A program made the position numbers and the translations under genes. Below are positions 5,553 through 54,325 of a stretch of DNA of 64,000 nt, one piece after another. This DNA is from Candidatus Tayloriibacteriota bacterium (GTDB lineage: Bacteria > Patescibacteriota > Minisyncoccia > Phycocordibacterales > PALSA-1337), in contig CALRAJ010000001.1 of the NCBI GenBank assembly GCA_943350765.1, positions 191,066-255,065 of the forward strand, written 5' to 3'. The notes beneath the pieces were generated by a model. That model had not been told where the DNA came from, did not search any database, and saw only the letters and a list, made by a program, of their open reading frames with translations. The stretch's first letter is position 1. Each line of letters opens with the position of its first letter.

Positions 5553-6434
5553 CTACCCTAGAAAACTAAACACTCTCATCTTTTCCTCCACCACTTGCGA
5601 TACTGCGTCTCTAGAAGGAGCGAGATATTTGTATGGAGCGACTTCTTTTGGATTGGCAGAGAGTGTCGTGTCCAGAGTACTTCGATATGCCACTCGAAGC
5701 TCAGTATTTACATGCACAATAGCCACACCAGCTTTGATTGCCGACTGAATATCCGCATCAGTATTACCAGATGCACCATGAAGTACGAGTGGTACGCCAG
5801 TCGCCTCTGACACCTCTGCCACTCGAGAGATATTGAGTGCGGGATCCTTCCATTTTGCAAGCATGCCGTGAATATTTCCCACGGCAGGTGCTAGCATATC
5901 TACACCAGTCTCATCGACATATCGCTTGGCTTGCTCTGCTGTGGTCAGGTATTCGTCAGATAGATTGATCCCCTCTGGCACAGCATCGAGTACCTTTGAA
6001 GATTTGCCGATATAGCCCAGCTCTGCCTCGACGAGTACTCGCTCACCAAAAAGTGGCTTCTGACTTTTTGCATACTCTACACACTGCTTTGCCACTCTAA
6101 TATTTTCCTCAAACGATAGCTCCGTGCCGTCAAAGATGACCATATCGAAACCGAGGTCGATAGCCTCTTTTACTCGCTCAAAAGAATAGGTATGGTCAGC
6201 GTTTATAAAAATCGGGAAATCGTACTGAGTACGCAAGCTTTTGACTAGAGCTACCGCTTGCTTTGCACCTATAAAATCTCGCTCGCCTTCAGAAACACCG
6301 ATAATGACAGGTAATTTTAATTTCCTTGCCGAATTAAACACCCCCCACAATCCCACTGTGTCGGAGATATTAAAATGACCAATAGCTGTCTTTTTTTCCT
6401 GAGCCTCACTGATGTATTGTTTTAGTGTTTTCAT
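5553..6434 (-). CDS. fba: Class II fructose-bisphosphate aldolase
   Basis: MKTLKQYISEAQEKKTAIGHFNISD...VIIGVSEGE...HGASG...LHGASGNTD shows class II FBA/tagatose-bisphosphate aldolase motifs. The start was set at MKTLKQ rather than the upstream in-frame M. Confidence 0.85.
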   Translation of the reverse strand: MKTLKQYISEAQEKKTAIGHFNISDTVGLWGVFNSARKLKLPVIIGVSEGERDFIGAKQAVALVKSLRTQYDFPIFINADHTYSFERVKEAIDLGFDMVIFDGTELSFEENIRVAKQCVEYAKSQKPLFGERVLVEAELGYIGKSSKVLDAVPEGINLSDEYLTTAEQAKRYVDETGVDMLAPAVGNIHGMLAKWKDPALNISRVAEVSEATGVPLVLHGASGNTDADIQSAIKAGVAIVHVNTELRVAYRSTLDTTLSANPKEVAPYKYLAPSRDAVSQVVEEKMRVFSFLG

Positions 6435-6460
6435 ATATTGTATTATATCGTAGCTTGCCC

Positions 6461-6610
6461 CCAATTACGAAATACTTTTCTTGGCATATCTTTTAAAGGG
6501 TACGGATAAAAATTTACTAATTTTTTCCTGAAATCTCGGCTACCCGCCTGCGAACCCCCTTTAAAAGATACGCCTGCGACAGTATTTCGTAATTGGGGGT
6601 ACCTTAAAAT
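6461..6610. repeat. MITE-like modular repeat, family 2 copy
   Basis: Imperfect inverted terminal repeats of about 40 bp (CCCCCAATTACGAAATAC...TTTTAAAGGG / CCCTTTAAAAGATACGCC...GTATTTCGTAATTGGGGG) flank a core that recurs in inverted orientation at 14088-14212. Segments are also shared with 58021-58150 and 59070-59180. Confidence 0.6.
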
Positions 6611-48236: not shown

Positions 48237-51200
48237 TTACATTACAATATTTACCACTCTTCCTTGTACATAGATAACTTTCTTTATCTGCTGTCTATCT
48301 ATCCACTTTTTTACTTCTGGAATACCCTGTGCTTGATTTTTTACTACCTCCTCAGTCGAATCTTTTGACACAATAATCTGCCCGCGCACCTTACCATTTA
48401 TCTGCACTGCAATAGTAACCATTTCCTCAACAAGCTTTTCTGGGTCAAATACTGGCCATGTTGCTATGTGTATAGAATTTTTATTACCCATCGCCGACCA
48501 AAGCTCCTCAGCCATATGTGGAGCAAATGGAGCGAGCAACTGTAGTAACACCCCCATCTGCTCTTCTGTAACCACTGTTTTTTCCATCGCATTTAGTAAA
48601 ATCATCAGCGACGAAATCGCGGTATTAAAACTGAAACCTTGAATATCTTCTCCTACCTTTTTAATAGTTTTGTTTAGTACAATTTCAAATGTACCCGCTT
48701 CCAACCCACGATCTACCGTCTCATGTTTGGTGTCTGTAAATCTACACCCAAGCTTCCACACCCGTTCGAGAAATCTTCTCGAGCCAATCATGTTTTGTGT
48801 ACTCCACGCAATACTCTGCTCAAACGGACCCATAAACATTTCATACACTCGAAAAGTATCGGCACCGTATGTAGCCATGACATCATCCGGGTTTACTACA
48901 TTACCAAATCGCTTACTCATCTTGCGACCATCCTCACCCATGATGAGTCCTTGATTTTTTAGCTCGGTGAAAGGCTCACTCGTCGAAACTACACCAATAT
49001 CATAGAGAAACTTATGCCAAAAACGAGCATATATTAGATGTCGTGTTGCGTGCTCTGTACCACCCACATAGAGATCCACTGGTGCCCAATATTTTTCCTT
49101 TTTAGGATCTACCAATGCTTTTTTGTTTTTCGAGTCCATGTAGCGGAGATAGTACCAAGACGACCCAGCCCACTGTGGCATGGTGTTGGTCTCTCTTTTT
49201 GCCGGGCCTTTACATTGCGGACATTTAGTATTCACCCACTTTGAGATAGTCGCAAGTGGTGACTCCCCTGTACCAGTCGGCTCGTATGATTTTACATTCG
49301 GCAATTTTACTGGCAAATCTTTCTCTGGTACTGCCACTACACCTTGCCCGGCAGGATTGCTTAGGGCACATTTTTCACAATGTACGAGTGGTATCGGCTC
49401 GCCCCAATATCTCTGCCTTGAAAATACCCAATCACGGAGTTTGTATTTAGTAACCATTTTACCTCCGACAAATTCAGTAATTTTCTTTTTTGCTTCTTTG
49501 GAATTTAATCCGTCAAATTTATCAGAGTAAGTAAGTAGCCCTTCGCCAGTAAAACACTCTATCCACCCACTAGAAAGATTTTGATAAATAGAATTAAGTA
49601 AGTCTTTGTTGGGTACAGTAAAATCAAAGTTATCGACCCGCACATCTTCTAGTACCGAATTATTCCCCCATACAAATTTCTTACCGATAATGGTATCGAA
49701 GTATATTCCATTTTCCTCTTCTAACAAAAATAGATCTAGCCAAACTCCGTCCTTATCACTCCAGAAAGCTTTGTGATTTTTCCAAAAATGACTTCCAGTT
49801 TTTTCACCAGTACTCAATTTAGAATTAAATCCTCTATCTGCAAGCTGTTTCTCGATAATCTTCCAGCCATTTTGCGTAACAAAAACATCTACATCCGAAT
49901 GGAGACCAAATTTCTTGTCACTCTGCGCTAATCTAGCCATACCACCAACCAATACCATTATGAAGTCATGTTTTCTAGATAAATCAAATACTTCCTTTAA
50001 TAGTTTACAATTATTCTCCTTGTTTGTGTCGGAATAATTTTTCTCATCTTTAATTACACATCGAATCGGTATATTATACTTCTTTGCAAACTCCCAATCC
50101 CGCTCATCATGTGCCGGCACTGCCATAACCGCACCGGTACCGTAGTCCGCGAGTACATAGTCGGCAATAAACATTGGGATCTTTTCTTTTGTTGCAGGAT
50201 TTATCGCCCACACACCATCGAGCTTTACACCAGTCTTTTCCTTGCCTGCATCTGTTCGCTCTATCTCAGTTTTCTTTTTTGACAAAGCAACATACTGACC
50301 TACTGATTCGGCGTTTTTAAGGACTCCTTTATGATTTTCATCTATCGCAAGTGTTACCCAAGGATGCTCTGGAGAAAGCACGAGAGCTGTTGCCCCAAAA
50401 AGTGTGTCCGCACGAGTAGTAAATACTGGCACTAAACCCGGCTTCCCACCATTTTCAAATTCTACTGCAAATGATATTTCTGACCCCTCACTCCTACCAA
50501 TCCAGTTCCTCTGACTCTCTTTAATAGACTCAGGCCAATTTAGGCTATCAATATCTTTGAGCAGTCGATCCGCATAGTCTGTAATCCGCAAAACCCACTG
50601 ACGAATAGGCTTTTTTTCTACCACACTACTACAGCGTTCACACTTACCATCCTCTAGGTCTTCGTTAGCAAGGCCTGTCTTGCACGATGGACACCAGTTG
50701 ATCGGCTCGTTGGACTCGTATGCTAAACCTTTTTTAAAAAGTTGTAGGAAAATCCACTGTGTCCAGCGATAGTATTCTGGATCGGTAGTATCTACTTCAC
50801 GCGACCAGTCATAGTCTAGTCCGATGATCTCCAACTGTTCTTTATAGCGTTTAATATTTTTCTTTACCGCCACACTCGGGTGGATTTTATTTTTAATGGC
50901 ATAATTTTCAGCAGGAAGACCGAAGGCATCAAAACCCATCGGGTGTAATACATTAAAACCCTGCATTCGTTTGAAACGCGAGTAGACATCGGTAGCGATA
51001 TATCCCTTTGGATGACCGACATGGAGACCTTCTCCCGACGGGTACGGAAACATGTCTAAAATGTAGCATTTATTGTTTTTAGCTGTATCGGCAGATTTCG
51101 GCTCAACTGTTTTATACAGCTTTTTTCTCTCCCATATCCTTTGCCATTTAATTTCAATCCGTTTATGGTTATACTCCGCAAGTTTCTGCTTGCCATGCCG

Positions 51201-51260
51201 TAGCGTAATCGCGGAGGATGGACACTTTTTTTCTATCTTTATATGGTCGTATTGCTTCAT
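48237..51260 (-). CDS. leuS: Leucyl-tRNA synthetase with an extra inserted domain of about 150 aa
   Basis: HIGH region (PYPSGEGLHVGH), editing-domain motifs, AHDERDWEFA and KMSKR are present. Between AHDERDWEFAKKYNIPI and YKLRDWVFSRQRYWGEPIP there are about 200 aa, versus about 70 aa in E. coli LeuRS. The extra region includes HDFIMVLVGGMARLAQSDKKFGLHSDVDVFV. Confidence 0.85.
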   Translation of the reverse strand: MKQYDHIKIEKKCPSSAITLRHGKQKLAEYNHKRIEIKWQRIWERKKLYKTVEPKSADTAKNNKCYILDMFPYPSGEGLHVGHPKGYIATDVYSRFKRMQGFNVLHPMGFDAFGLPAENYAIKNKIHPSVAVKKNIKRYKEQLEIIGLDYDWSREVDTTDPEYYRWTQWIFLQLFKKGLAYESNEPINWCPSCKTGLANEDLEDGKCERCSSVVEKKPIRQWVLRITDYADRLLKDIDSLNWPESIKESQRNWIGRSEGSEISFAVEFENGGKPGLVPVFTTRADTLFGATALVLSPEHPWVTLAIDENHKGVLKNAESVGQYVALSKKKTEIERTDAGKEKTGVKLDGVWAINPATKEKIPMFIADYVLADYGTGAVMAVPAHDERDWEFAKKYNIPIRCVIKDEKNYSDTNKENNCKLLKEVFDLSRKHDFIMVLVGGMARLAQSDKKFGLHSDVDVFVTQNGWKIIEKQLADRGFNSKLSTGEKTGSHFWKNHKAFWSDKDGVWLDLFLLEEENGIYFDTIIGKKFVWGNNSVLEDVRVDNFDFTVPNKDLLNSIYQNLSSGWIECFTGEGLLTYSDKFDGLNSKEAKKKITEFVGGKMVTKYKLRDWVFSRQRYWGEPIPLVHCEKCALSNPAGQGVVAVPEKDLPVKLPNVKSYEPTGTGESPLATISKWVNTKCPQCKGPAKRETNTMPQWAGSSWYYLRYMDSKNKKALVDPKKEKYWAPVDLYVGGTEHATRHLIYARFWHKFLYDIGVVSTSEPFTELKNQGLIMGEDGRKMSKRFGNVVNPDDVMATYGADTFRVYEMFMGPFEQSIAWSTQNMIGSRRFLERVWKLGCRFTDTKHETVDRGLEAGTFEIVLNKTIKKVGEDIQGFSFNTAISSLMILLNAMEKTVVTEEQMGVLLQLLAPFAPHMAEELWSAMGNKNSIHIATWPVFDPEKLVEEMVTIAVQINGKVRGQIIVSKDSTEEVVKNQAQGIPEVKKWIDRQQIKKVIYVQGRVVNIVM

Positions 51261-51284: not shown

Positions 51285-51425
51285 GAGCGGGAGCCAAGAG
51301 CCATACTGGTGGCGAAAGTCCTGAGCTTAGCAAAGCGTAGGGCAAGAGCCATACAGGAGCCATACTGGTGGCGGGAGTACTAAAGCTCACCAGAGCGTAG
51401 TACTGGTAGCGAAGATGCTGAGTTT
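51285..51425. repeat. Dispersed intergenic repeat, family 1, tandem-unit copy E
   Basis: Repeated units AGAGCCATACTGGTGGCG[AG][AG]AGT.CTGAGCT.AGCA.AGCGTAG, between two and three units. Confidence 0.6.
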
Positions 51426-51545: not shown

Positions 51546-51872
51546 ATGAAAACATATACCTCGTCCCGTCGGAATACGCTCCTTGGGTTGCTCTGTGCAG
51601 CCCTCGGATCCATCAAAAGTCTTGGGGCAAAATCCCCCGAACCGAAATACTACCGAGTGCAGTGGAAGAAACTCCACGACGAGCCCGTCGGACCTGGGGA
51701 TATGTGGGTCTGCCACGAAACGGACCCCAACACCCCAAAACGGCAAAGTGAGAACTGCTACAACCTGCAGATGCAGGCCATTCACGGAAGTCATTGGGGC
51801 ACACCGGCTAAGAGTATCAGTCGGGGCAATGGTGACTATTGGAGACCGACTGGACTCGTTCCTGTTTTTTGA
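51546..51872 (+). CDS. Small Tat-signal secreted protein, paralog A (unknown function)
   Basis: Twin-arginine motif SRRNTLLGLL and a conserved core PKYYRVQWKKLHDEPVGPGDMWV.H.TDPNTP shared with 52212-52538. GC-richer than the genome background. Its own promoter and terminator are present. Confidence 0.55.
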   Translation: MKTYTSSRRNTLLGLLCAALGSIKSLGAKSPEPKYYRVQWKKLHDEPVGPGDMWVCHETDPNTPKRQSENCYNLQMQAIHGSHWGTPAKSISRGNGDYWRPTGLVPVF

Positions 51873-52211: not shown

Positions 52212-52538
52212 ATGAAGCAAGATGCTGTCATTACTGGTCAGTCCCGTCGGAATACGCTCCTTGGGTTGCTCTATGCCGTCCTTGGACTGAAGTTGGAAGT
52301 TGAAGCAAAAACTCCCGTGCCCAAATATCAAAGGGTGCAGTGGAAGAAACTCCACGACGAGCCCGTCGGACATGGAGATATGTGGGTTATGCACGCAACG
52401 GATCCAAACACTCCGGATAACCTACACTTCCTTGAAATGCACAGGGCTGGTAAACATTTCCACGGAATTCCAGCAAAGGATATACTCTATCCCAATGGTA
52501 ATTTTTGGAGGCCAGTTGCCATCGTTGATGTCAACTGA
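52212..52538 (+). CDS. Small Tat-signal secreted protein, paralog B
   Basis: SRRNTLLGLL twin-arginine motif. About 50% identical to 51546-51872 over the full length (KYQRVQWKKLHDEPVGHGDMWVMHATDPNTP). Confidence 0.55.
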   Translation: MKQDAVITGQSRRNTLLGLLYAVLGLKLEVEAKTPVPKYQRVQWKKLHDEPVGHGDMWVMHATDPNTPDNLHFLEMHRAGKHFHGIPAKDILYPNGNFWRPVAIVDVN

Positions 52539-52584: not shown

Positions 52585-53016
52585 TCATTTGCTATCAACA
52601 AATCCGATCTTTTTGACAAAAGCTGGAATAAACTTCTGATGACCTATAAATATTTCTTTTGGTAAATTGTCTAAATCAAACCATTTCCATTCTGCAAATT
52701 TATCTGGCTCTGTTACCTTTAGTTCACCTGACCAATTTTTTGCAAGAAAATTGATATGCACATAATGCACTTTCTCCAATGGATCATTTACTAGATGTAA
52801 AAATTCTAATTCATTTGATATTATACCAGTCTCCTCCTCCAATTCTCTTTTAGCTGCACCTGCTAGTGATTCTCCATATTCAAAATGACCTCCTGGTAAA
52901 CACCATGTTCCATAGCCAGTTTTTCCTATTCTTTTACCAAATAAAATCTTTCCGTCTTTAAAAACAAATATATTTACACCGATCTTTGGATATGATTTTT
53001 GATCGTTTGAGTTCAT
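52585..53016 (-). CDS. NUDIX hydrolase
   Basis: Nudix box GGHFEYGESLAGAAKRELEEETGI. Confidence 0.8.
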   Translation of the reverse strand: MNSNDQKSYPKIGVNIFVFKDGKILFGKRIGKTGYGTWCLPGGHFEYGESLAGAAKRELEEETGIISNELEFLHLVNDPLEKVHYVHINFLAKNWSGELKVTEPDKFAEWKWFDLDNLPKEIFIGHQKFIPAFVKKIGFVDSK

Positions 53017-53227: not shown

Positions 53228-54325
53228 CTAGATTTTAAACTCTACGACATCCCCATCTTTTACCACATACTCCTTTCCCTCTGTCCGTACCAAACCCTTT
53301 TCTCGAGCCACTCCGTATGAGCCTGAGGCGAGAAGCTTGTCCCACTCGATAACTTCCGCACGCACAAACTTATCTTTAAAATCCGTGTGGATCGCCGTAC
53401 CAGCCAGAGGTGCTGTCCAACCTTTTCGTATTGTCCAAGCTCGAGTCTCCTCGACTCCAGTCGTAAAATAGGTAATCAGGTCGAGCACTTCATATCCAGC
53501 GCGAATAAGTGTATCGATACCATCGTCCTTTGCCCCTAACCCATCTCGCATTTCTTTTTTATCCGCATCAGATAGGTCCTTGAGCTCATGTTCAAAACCC
53601 GCGTCCACCACCACCCATTTTGCGCCAGTCTTTTTAAAATGTTCGATCAGTCGGGTATACCTTGCATCATTTATCTCATCAAGATTTTTGCCTCCAGCTT
53701 TTTTGTTTAAAACATACAAAAATGGCTTTGCGGTCAGCAAGTGCAAATGTTTGAGTAATGGTTTTTCAAATTCATCTGTAGTAACGGTACTGACGAGCTT
53801 CTCTGCCTCAAGAGCATTTTTTAATTTCTCTAGCAGTCCATTTTCAATCACTGCCTCTTTTTTGCCACGCTTTATATCACTTTGAATGTTTGAAAGACGC
53901 TTGGTCACTGTTTGAAGGTCGGCGAGGATAAGCTCGAGATTGATAACCTCGATATCATTGAGTGGGTCTATTTTACCATCGACATGGATTACATTATCGT
54001 CTTCAAAAATACGCACGACCTCAGCAATAGCATCCGTCTCACGGATATTAGTGAGGAATTGATTACCCAAACCCTCACCTGCCGAGGCACCTTTTACGAG
54101 CCCTGCAATATCCACAAACTCCACCGCCGCAGGCACCGTTTTTAATGTTTTAGAAAATGCAGACAACTTCCAAAGACGCTCATCTGGTACGGCTACTACA
54201 CCTACAGAAGGGTCAATTGTACAAAAAGGGTAGTTTTCAGCAGGCACACTCTTTTTAGTAAGTGCGTTAAAAAGCGTTGATTTACCGACATTTGGAAGTC
54301 CGACAATACCGATGGATAGTGACAT
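53228..54325 (-). CDS. ychF: Ribosome-binding ATPase YchF (Obg-family GTPase)
   Basis: [23 protein letters not shown], then the TGS/YchF C-terminal domain (…DFIRAEVI…). Length 365 aa. Confidence 0.85.

Follow-up and report, generated by a model that had tools for sequence, protein, structure and literature searches.

Few enzymes are as strongly conserved as the aminoacyl-tRNA synthetases, and one of them, leucyl-tRNA synthetase (LeuRS), has an editing domain that is itself a classic inserted module. In the window (the whole stretch of 64,000 nucleotides that was analysed), the editing domain of LeuRS, CP1, is in turn interrupted by a further stretch of protein. The question raised by this locus is what the insert is and what it may do inside a synthetase.

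The leuS gene was confirmed as an ORF of 1007 aa at 48237..51260 on the minus strand, as the first-pass annotation had stated; all features of the protein given below lie on this strand. The product scored 997 bits with the NCBIfam equivalog TIGR00396 (leuS_bact; cut-off 548), was matched by Pfam tRNA-synt_1, tRNA-synt_1_2, and Anticodon_1, and aligned with T. thermophilus LeuRS at E 9.5e-226. The HIGH signature was HVGHP (aa 80–84, 51009..51023), and the KMSKS signature was KMSKR (aa 780–784, 48909..48923). CP1 was matched by PF13603 (E 1e-54) in two stretches. The N-terminal part (aa 251–415, 50016..50510; profile positions 1–152 of 185) contained the T-rich motif TTRADT at aa 281 and the editing aspartate D388 (50097–50099), located by motif position. 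The C-terminal remainder after the insert (aa 570–605, 49446..49553) was delimited by the T. thermophilus alignment and PF13603. All the marks of a bacterial-type LeuRS that were examined (a score above the TIGR00396 cut-off, HIGH, KMSKS, and CP1 with its T-rich motif and Asp) were present. The window LeuRS is otherwise canonical, and its HIGH, KMSKS, and editing motifs are intact. Neither an Rfam scan nor a tRNA scan of the window gave a match, so no RNA gene accounts for the gap of about 1 kb upstream of leuS.

The extent of the insert was determined from conserved anchors and from alignment. Between AHDERDWEFA (aa 383–392) and YKLRDWVFSRQRYWGEPIP (aa 606–624), 213 residues were counted, close to the 200 or so noted earlier. 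The distance from PAHD to YKLRDW was 224 aa. Most relatives that lack an insert have 54–80 aa there; the closest of these, P0003, has 71 aa, with the loop TPDSVGDFSDGKCIV at the site of window aa 404–569. T. thermophilus LeuRS aligned with window aa 29–404 and then with aa 570–775, restarting at aa 570, its own residue 377. The alignment left about 152–153 additional residues between T. thermophilus residues 363 and 377, in agreement with the extra domain of about 150 aa proposed before. These residues (aa ~410–566) interrupt the CP1 editing domain. The cassette including linkers (aa 397–569, 49554..50072) had no DNA homology to syntenic orthologues, and its GC content was 0.345 versus 0.427 for the remaining leuS. 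The identical protein was recorded on six contigs, and the leuS DNA was the same as that of the window in the three places compared (one ENA assembly and two NCBI assemblies). Homologous inserts occurred at the same site in five further LeuRS proteins or fragments from other datasets. Because identical DNA was present in several assemblies and same-site inserts in other datasets, the insert is not an assembly artefact.

The folded domain spans aa 410–566 (49563..50033). The predicted elements of its first half are α1 (414–431), β1 (435–438), α2 (439–448), β2 (457–461), and α3 (463–475); the second half is β-rich and is followed by a C-terminal helix (552–566). The predicted domain has the α-β-α-β-α-β order with a mixed sheet of a Pol-beta-like core, and in the full-length AF2 model it folds in the context of LeuRS.

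The conservation of the GG..D.D residues among homologues had been proposed as a check on the nucleotidyltransferase (NTase) reading, and the motif residues were invariant in 10/10 aligned family sequences. G439-G440 (49941..49946) forms the hG[GS] loop between β1 and α2, together with an equally unchanged V438. It aligns with G27-G28 of ANT(2'')-Ia, by analogy with which the loop would be a putative NTP-phosphate binding site. H454-S-D456-V-D458 on β2 (49887..49901) provides putative Mg2+-binding carboxylates and a putative phosphate-contacting His; H454, D456, and D458 correspond to His42, Asp44, and Asp46 of ANT(2'')-Ia, whose roles have been described (PMC4313920). The invariant D456-V-D458-V on the predicted strand 457–461 represents [DE]h[DE]h, and A442 is also invariant. 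D509 (49734..49736), in the predicted β-strand VWLDLFL, is the candidate third carboxylate and catalytic base, as judged by D/E conservation: the position is D or E in all nine full-length members, with Asp in 6/6 LeuRS inserts and Glu in 3/3 full-length stand-alone homologues. Its putative counterpart in ANT(2'')-Ia is Asp86.

One part of the first-pass annotation had to be corrected. The string that it quoted (aa 431–461) did not match the strict hG[GS]-x(9-13)-Dh[DE]h pattern, as 15 residues lie between G440 and D456. The same spacing is found in ANT(2'')-Ia, so it is a property of the subgroup and no evidence against an NTase fold. The relaxed x(9-15) pattern matched once in the window LeuRS and also in about 3% of its shuffles, and the motif by itself is therefore weak evidence. 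The reading of the insert as an NTase module was nevertheless supported by the predicted fold, the profile matches, and the conservation of the residues, and the assignment rests on these rather than on the motif alone.

Fold and homology identify the insert as a complete minimal Pol-beta-superfamily domain of the LnuA / ANT(2'')-Ia / TM1012 / LicD-FKRP subgroup. Small-molecule enzymes were nearer in fold (LnuA 13.9, ANT(2'') 12.8) than MenT1 (10.4). PF10706 matched 5/7 family members (best E 9.8e-6), as did PF14907. The window insert scored 17.8–18.0 bits with PF10706 (E 0.003), under the Pfam gathering score of 21 bits; judged by sequence profile, it is a remote PF10706 relative and is not called a member. 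The family profile matched ANT(2'')-Ia at 7e-5 and LnuA at 2.7e-3, the Lnu(D) model matched 6/10 family members, and Mf1 matched 4/10 (best E 1e-7). The NCBIfam resistance families (Lnu, ANT(2'')-Ia) gave 14–21 bits versus cut-offs of 225–325 bits. Since the scores were under the PF10706 gathering and NCBIfam cut-offs, function cannot be transferred from those families. The AbiEii (DUF1814) models matched only 1/10 family members (E 0.016), which places the family outside MenT/AbiEii, and no PADLOC defence model matched the window insert.

The insert differs from each of its known relatives. The Lnu(A/C/D/P) family, including LnuA (PDB 4FO1/4WH5), is 12–16% identical to the insert, which at 14–21 bits against cut-offs of about 325 bits is a non-member; LnuA is a free-standing resistance protein, whereas the window domain is nested in an aminoacyl-tRNA synthetase. 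ANT(2'')-Ia/AadB (PDB 4WQK, 4XJE; PF10706) is a 2''-nucleotidyltransferase that modifies aminoglycosides, and its likeness to the insert is one of sequence and fold. Only α1 to β2 are alignable in sequence, and unlike ANT(2'')-Ia the window domain has a β-rich C-terminal half with one long helix. LicD/FKRP/Mf1 proteins are NTase-fold phospho-alcohol transferases that use CDP-alcohol donors and act on glycans or lipids; they are larger or multi-domain, and the insert scored well under the cut-offs of these families. MenT1 (Rv0078A) and the other MenT tRNA nucleotidyltransferase toxins belong to another sequence family (DUF1814/AbiEii) and have cognate antitoxins. Unlike MenT, the window module is acidic and forms part of an essential enzyme, and it has no antitoxin context because it is internal to leuS.

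The NTase module was very rare. Besides the window LeuRS, it was found in five LeuRS proteins or fragments and as a few stand-alone proteins of 140–155 aa, and the family sequences, stand-alone proteins included, were only 20–48% identical. A single-sequence search with the excised insert found nothing in a word-indexed set of 5.8 billion proteins or in PDB sequences; relatives were found solely by an exhaustive HMMER scan and profile searches. The word-indexed profile search missed the known LeuRS carriers P0099 and P0113, and its counts are no census. A genome-collection scan gave at least one locus among 185,579 species representatives and a JGI metagenome scan gave no locus, both as lower bounds from two short peptide patterns. 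Among the best 120 LeuRS matches, three had the NTase form. Within the LnuA/ANT(2'')/LicD subgroup, the insert would represent a new branch that is very rare.

The proposed comparison with sister genomes showed that the insert is patchy, being absent or replaced by a NUDIX domain in syntenic orthologues. LeuRS core identity to the window was 87% for P0002 (NUDIX), 86% for P0003 (no insert), and 86% for P0004 (NUDIX), versus 64, 62, and 51% for the NTase-bearing P0099, P0113, and P0121. The four LeuRS that carry the NTase had a common ancestor that spanned all 121 sequences of an NJ tree. The gene order YchF - ... - leuS - sigma-like - DUF8128 - YceG was common to the three alleles. DNA identity to the NUDIX allele (L007) and the insert-less allele (L008) was 75–95% up to CDS nt ~1185, fell to about 40% or gaps at nt ~1190–1710, and returned to 65–88%; the breakpoints are sharp. 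In P0002, the NUDIX domain interrupts PF13603 at the same point of the profile as the insert does in the window (~152–154). The NUDIX-bearing LeuRS P0002 and P0004, the latter named 'NUDIX domain-containing protein' by NCBI, share host, insertion point, and synteny with the window, and differ in carrying an unrelated fold (PF00293) and in being common, whereas the NTase form is rare. The NUDIX form was found in 60 of the best 120 LeuRS matches by a motif classifier and in 66 by a precomputed Pfam list. About half of the closest relatives listed had NUDIX at the site, and most others had nothing or a short loop extension. The NTase domain is one state of a polymorphic, patchily distributed insertion site in Patescibacteria LeuRS. 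The insert has a low GC content, and insert identities rank in the opposite order to core identities; both facts are compatible with lateral transfer and do not prove it. A stand-alone NUDIX gene (52585–53016) was considered as the source of the LeuRS NUDIX inserts and was rejected, with only NUDIX-box-level similarity.

The explanation judged slightly better than even is that an NTase nested in CP1 is an exchangeable cassette, with a small molecule a likelier substrate than tRNA and with LeuRS as its scaffold. By analogy with ANT(2'')-Ia, the domain would be catalytically active. The donor, an NTP or NDP-alcohol, would be held by its phosphates at G439-G440 and H454; D456, D458, and D509 would form the site for two Mg2+ ions, and D509 would also act as the base. 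The nucleotidyl (or phospho-alcohol) group would be passed to an acceptor hydroxyl. The acceptor may be a small, probably cationic molecule (antibiotic-like or a metabolite) rather than tRNA, a more tentative step. It is suggested because the nearest structures and families are small-molecule modifiers, because the module is acidic (pI 4.7–6.4, net charge −2 to −11) versus a LeuRS core of pI 8.9, because an acidic and aromatic patch (LLEEENG, HxWxNHxWFW) is conserved, and because one stand-alone homologue (P0126) adjoins an APH-type kinase gene. LeuRS would then be chiefly a scaffold whose expression is constitutive, and the module would not alter leucylation or editing.

NUDIX, NTase, and, at a second site, α/β-hydrolase domains recur within CP1 of many Patescibacteria LeuRS. 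This recurrence suggests that the domains are functionally coupled to LeuRS, and a model in which LeuRS is purely a scaffold leaves it unexplained. It is possible, though unlikely, that CP1 of Patescibacteria LeuRS is a dedicated slot exchanging nucleotide-handling enzymes that work with the synthetase, taken as one claim for the NUDIX hydrolase, the LnuA/ANT(2'')/LicD-like transferase, and the α/β-hydrolase at the second site. The target of the NTase might then be the 3' end of tRNALeu, or else a compound of adenylate-like or NDP-X type bound or released by LeuRS. Such a compound could be a by-product or an inhibitor, and proofreading or self-protection would be extended beyond classical editing.

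A LicD/FKRP/Mf1-like phospho-alcohol transferase, with an NDP-alcohol (CDP-choline, CDP-ribitol) rather than an NTP as donor, seems rather improbable; both cassettes, NTase and NUDIX, would then handle the same kind of substrate, a nucleoside diphosphate joined to X.

Action on LeuRS-held tRNA seems quite improbable. The NTase would extend tRNALeu at its 3' end, either in CCA repair or as a MenT-like block, or would otherwise modify the acceptor end, and it would exploit its location within CP1, to which the 3' end is brought for editing. However, the small-molecule enzymes match more closely in fold than MenT1, all sequence-family matches are of Lnu, ANT(2''), or LicD type and only one member was matched by AbiEii/MenT-type models, and an acidic module is poorly suited to binding RNA. 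The NTase is absent, or replaced by NUDIX, in orthologues whose cores are 86% identical, which indicates that it is not needed for tRNALeu handling.

That the domain is an inert passenger or a purely structural appendage in a permissive loop is given equally little credit. Close orthologues work in its absence, it persists in very few lineages, and pLDDT below 50 in the C-terminal linker (aa 563–567, full-length AF2 model) suggests a loosely tethered module. On the other hand, the motif residues needed for catalysis are invariant across 20–48% identical sequences, stand-alone proteins included, and purifying selection acts on the insert, with pN 0.20, pS 0.65, and dN/dS ~0.16 between the inserts of P0099 and P0113. 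The selection figure comes from this pair, as synonymous sites between the window and other carriers were saturated and dN/dS was unusable. The chance rate of the relaxed motif and the unmatched strict spacing speak for the absence of any NTase, the stretch then being an expansion of CP1 or of a leucine-specific segment, an intein-like element, or the product of chimeric assembly. This reading can be dismissed as ruled out by the fold matches, the identical DNA in assemblies, and the invariant motif residues.

Should the modules work together with LeuRS, their targets being tRNA ends, adenylates, inhibitors, or by-products of the Ap(n)A type, they would constitute a new kind of quality control or self-defence linked to a synthetase. 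Should they be mere passengers, the site would still be a clear natural example of a permissive site for grafting domains into LeuRS, useful for engineering. A full-text literature search found no description of LeuRS with NUDIX or NTase inserts; PMC13622651 mentions only a pheS counter-selection marker. According to a recent survey of domain insertions, PF13603 was always the insert and never the host in 213 events (PMC13114784). Here CP1 is the host of a complete, apparently catalytic NTase, giving three-level nesting of NTase in CP1 in the Rossmann fold. The occupation of the same loop by NUDIX in about half of the closest relatives listed suggests that an essential translation enzyme of the genome-reduced Patescibacteria has an accessory slot, so far unrecognised, whose content is fluid in evolution. 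That a class Ia synthetase can carry an unrelated enzyme domain has a precedent in NF040702 ('isoleucine--tRNA ligase, N-acetyltransferase domain-containing'), which differs from the window LeuRS in both synthetase and passenger fold.

The first-pass annotation had reported a long LeuRS ORF, and a frame of 1007 aa was borne out at 48237..51260 on the minus strand. The protein was identified as a bacterial-type leucyl-tRNA synthetase with 997 bits against a cut-off of 548 bits (NCBIfam TIGR00396). It was aligned with T. thermophilus LeuRS at E 9.5e-226 and matched tRNA-synt_1, the editing domain PF13603, and Anticodon_1 in Pfam. The HIGH signature was present as HVGHP (aa 80–84), the KMSKS signature as KMSKR (aa 780–784), the T-rich editing motif as TTRADT (aa 281), and the conserved editing Asp as D388 within AHDERD. 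The LeuRS keeps its own catalytic and editing motifs intact.

Three further features of the protein were observed. The N-terminal extension (aa 1–28; 51177–51260, minus strand) resembles a duplicated canonical start, MKQYDHIKIEKKC-PSSAITLRHGKQKLAE-YNHKRIEIKWQRIW; close relatives start directly with MKQYDHTKIEKKWQKQW, and a doubled start also occurs in the distant LeuRS P0067, there with a PSSA linker. The alignment with T. thermophilus LeuRS begins only at aa 29, and the AlphaFold2 pLDDT was below 50 across aa 1–25. The leucine-specific domain is absent: GEDGRKM (aa 775–781; ~48920–48940, minus strand) stands in place of T. thermophilus residues 579–638, just before KMSKS, and is similar to the GKDG tetrapeptide of Mycoplasma mobile LeuRS (PMC3643597). 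Nine extra residues, ALSNPAGQG (aa 632–640; ~49341–49367, minus strand), lie inside HCEKC...VVAVPEKD and are missing in P0002–P0005 (relatives with 83–87% identity) and in T. thermophilus LeuRS.

The anchors of the reported extra domain were located at aa 383–392 (AHDERDWEFA), aa 606–624 (YKLRDW...), and aa 431–461 (the motif string). The long gap between conserved segments was confirmed: from PAHD to YKLRDW there were 224 residues, versus 71 in P0003, the closest relative without an insert. T. thermophilus residues 3–363 corresponded to aa 29–404, and the alignment restarted at aa 570 (residue 377), which delimited the insert as ~152 extra residues between residues 363 and 377, within the editing domain (CP1). 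PF13603 was broken by the insert; profile positions 1–152 of 185 reached to aa 415, and the match resumed in a second stretch beyond the insert. The DNA identity of leuS to both syntenic orthologues, P0002 (NUDIX insert) and P0003, was 75–95% up to CDS nt ~1185, dropped to ~40% or gaps until nt ~1710, and recovered after. This collapse of identity placed the cassette limits at 49554–50072 of the window. The GC content of the cassette was 0.345, versus 0.427 in the remainder of leuS.

The proposed nucleotidyltransferase (NTase)-like module was supported by fold searches, profile matches, and invariant motif residues. With the excised insert, matches to families of the NTase fold were weak but coherent: E was 0.003 for PF10706 (ANT(2'')), 0.04 for Lnu(D), and 3e-4 for LicD-like Mf1. 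Its AlphaFold2 model from a 7-sequence alignment (pLDDT 79.7, pTM 0.78) had a core in alpha-beta-alpha-beta-alpha-beta order, after which came a beta-rich half and a helix at the C-terminus. The best Foldseek match in the PDB was LnuA (E 4.5e-7, TM 0.60/0.69), followed in order by FKRP, TM1012, MenT1, and ANT(2'')-Ia, and then by CCA-adding enzymes, CutA, and Cid1. LicD proteins were at the top in a viral fold library (E 1e-7). PF10706 was matched by five of seven family members (best 9.8e-6), as was PF14907. Among PDB sequences, a 10-sequence profile matched ANT(2'')-Ia (E 7e-5) and LnuA (E 2.7e-3). The Lnu(D), Lnu(P), Lnu(C), and Mf1 models matched 4–6 of the 10 members, all far below curated cut-offs, and the window insert was thus outside every named resistance family. 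From the fold matches and the sub-cut-off sequence matches, the insert is a remote member of the LnuA/ANT(2'')/TM1012/LicD subgroup of Pol-beta-type nucleotidyltransferases. The NTase domain in the window LeuRS is complete, of LnuA size, and intact in its motifs. The fold was kept in the full-length model (pLDDT 81.6, pTM 0.72), which had a low-confidence C-terminal linker (aa 563–567) and a disordered N-terminal extension (aa 1–25); this model is informative on the fold of the domain, not on inter-domain geometry.

The motif itself required correction. The strict pattern hG[GS]-x(9-13)-Dh[DE]h, with which the region had been said to agree, did not match the insert, in which 15 residues separate G440 and D456. 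With the range relaxed to x(9-15), the pattern matched once in the window LeuRS and in 4 of 120 related LeuRS, 3 of them with the same insert. About 3% of shuffles of the same protein also matched, so the motif alone is weak evidence and the case was built on fold, homology, and conservation. G439, G440, A442, H454, D456, and D458 were invariant in all ten aligned sequences, which were 20–48% identical to the window insert. H454, D456, and D458 aligned opposite His42, Asp44, and Asp46 of ANT(2'')-Ia. In that enzyme both Mg2+ ions are coordinated by Asp44 and Asp46, the phosphates of the NTP are held with the help of His42, and Asp86 serves as catalytic base as well as metal ligand (PMC4313920). 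All six LeuRS inserts had Asp at position 509 (VWLDLFL), where the three full-length stand-alone proteins had Glu; judged from sequence, D509 is the obvious candidate counterpart of Asp86. For the inserts of P0099 and P0113, the two other full-length carriers, pN was 0.20, pS 0.65, and dN/dS ~0.16 with dS near saturation, indicating purifying selection. The insert is probably catalytically competent.

The NTase domain would catalyze Mg2+-dependent nucleotidyl transfer, with an NTP as donor and a hydroxyl as acceptor. A small, probably cationic acceptor molecule is favoured, because the nearest structures and all sequence-family matches are small-molecule enzymes; the module is acidic (pI 4.7–6.4; LeuRS core, 8.9); acidic and aromatic stretches in it are conserved (LLEEENG and HxWxNHxWFW); and the stand-alone homologue P0126 lies near an APH-type kinase gene. 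The main rival, action on the 3' end of tRNALeu, is suggested by the MenT1 structural match (PMC10435456) and the position within CP1; against it stand the acidic charge, the sequence-family matches, and the fact that close orthologues do without the insert. For the donor, the similarity to LicD, Mf1, and FKRP makes phospho-alcohol transfer from an NDP-alcohol instead of NTP possible.

The CP1 site was typed by motif in the best 120 LeuRS matches, in which a few sequences escaped regular-expression typing. The NTase insert was found in 3, and 60 had a NUDIX box in that segment (66 with PF00293 by a precomputed Pfam list); most of the remainder had only a short loop of 54–107 residues. P0067 had a ~80-aa insert without a Pfam match at the same site (aa ~400–500). 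All named matches were from Patescibacteria, such as Yonathbacteria, Taylorbacteria, and Paceibacterota, and some Patescibacteria LeuRS were as long as 1131–1558 aa. In P0002, PF13603 ended at profile position 154 and NUDIX followed at aa 398–515 (E 1.7e-11); with the break at ~152 in the window LeuRS, this indicated a common break point for both inserts. At a second CP1 site, directly after RNWIGRSEG, a ~175-aa alpha/beta (serine) hydrolase split PF13603 at profile position ~20 in P0079, P0083, P0120, P0047, P0059, and P0090, some of which also had a NUDIX insert. A function coupled between the CP1 inserts and LeuRS is unlikely; it is kept alive because CP1 has repeatedly captured enzymes that handle nucleotides or esters (NUDIX, NTase, and alpha/beta-hydrolase), a recurrence that a pure scaffold model does not explain.

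P0099 and P0113 were found among the LeuRS search matches. When 1.84 billion representatives were scanned exhaustively with HMMER, only three further carriers emerged (P0121, P0122, and P0123), all LeuRS fragments in which the insert sits at the same site, together with a stand-alone protein of 142 aa (P0124); the stand-alone P0126 and P0127 were added by profile search. As lower bounds, pattern scans found at least one related locus in 185,579 species-representative genomes; in the JGI metagenome collection the count was zero. The identical 1007-aa protein was on record for six contigs, and the leuS DNA was identical to the window at all three places fetched (one ENA and two NCBI assemblies). 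P0123 (370 aa) was the most divergent carrier, with AHDLRE versus AHDxRD at the editing Asp and the T-rich motif altered to FTKRPET; in this protein the editing function may have degenerated. Upstream of the P0126 gene (155 aa; 6001–6468 in three fetched loci) is a gene for an OLD-family AAA/TOPRIM nuclease; downstream come an uncharacterised 161-aa gene and then an APH-family kinase gene. The setting resembles an accessory region of defence or resistance type.

The module was present in P0099, P0113, and P0121–P0123; P0002 and P0004 had NUDIX at the site, and P0003 had no insert. Over 785 core columns, the window LeuRS was 87% identical to P0002 (NUDIX), 86% to P0003 (no insert), and 86% to P0004 (NUDIX), versus 64%, 62%, and 51% to the NTase carriers P0099, P0113, and P0121. 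The insert identity was reversed relative to the core, with a peak of 48% for P0121, the carrier with the most distant core. In a neighbor-joining tree, the common ancestor of four NTase carriers took in all 121 sequences. The window, P0002, and P0003 loci were syntenic (YchF, small genes, leuS, sigma-70-like, DUF8128, YceG). The dS of ~1.8 between window and P0002 indicated that they are not very recent relatives and that insert turnover is at about genus scale, not strain scale. The data fit both lateral cassette exchange via conserved flanks and repeated replacement or loss; the discordant insert and core identities favour some lateral movement.

The NTase fold itself and accessory domains in synthetases are already known. 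An IleRS with a GNAT domain is covered by an NCBIfam exception model, so a class Ia synthetase with an enzyme passenger is not in principle without precedent; the present case is a LeuRS with an NTase. In a 2026 domain-insertion survey, PF13603 was always insert and never host (PMC13114784). Full-text literature searches found no description of a LeuRS with an NTase or NUDIX insert. The combination of LeuRS host, CP1 site, and NTase passenger, with its alternation with NUDIX, is new.

Upstream of leuS, with two small ORFs between, the window contains a stand-alone NUDIX gene (143 aa; 52585–53016, minus strand) that adjoins ychF (53228–54325) and is syntenic in the locus of a NUDIX-insert relative. 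It was rejected as the source of the LeuRS NUDIX inserts because the similarity is at NUDIX-box level only. The ~1-kb gap upstream of leuS holds two paralogous 108-aa ORFs (51546–51872 and 52212–52538, both plus strand), without Pfam annotation in the syntenic loci, that have a SRRNTLLGLL signal-like N-terminus and the common core RVQWKKLHDEPVG.GDMWV. Inspection by eye showed short direct repeats in the DNA at 51300–51420, ...CACCAGTATGGCTC... among them.
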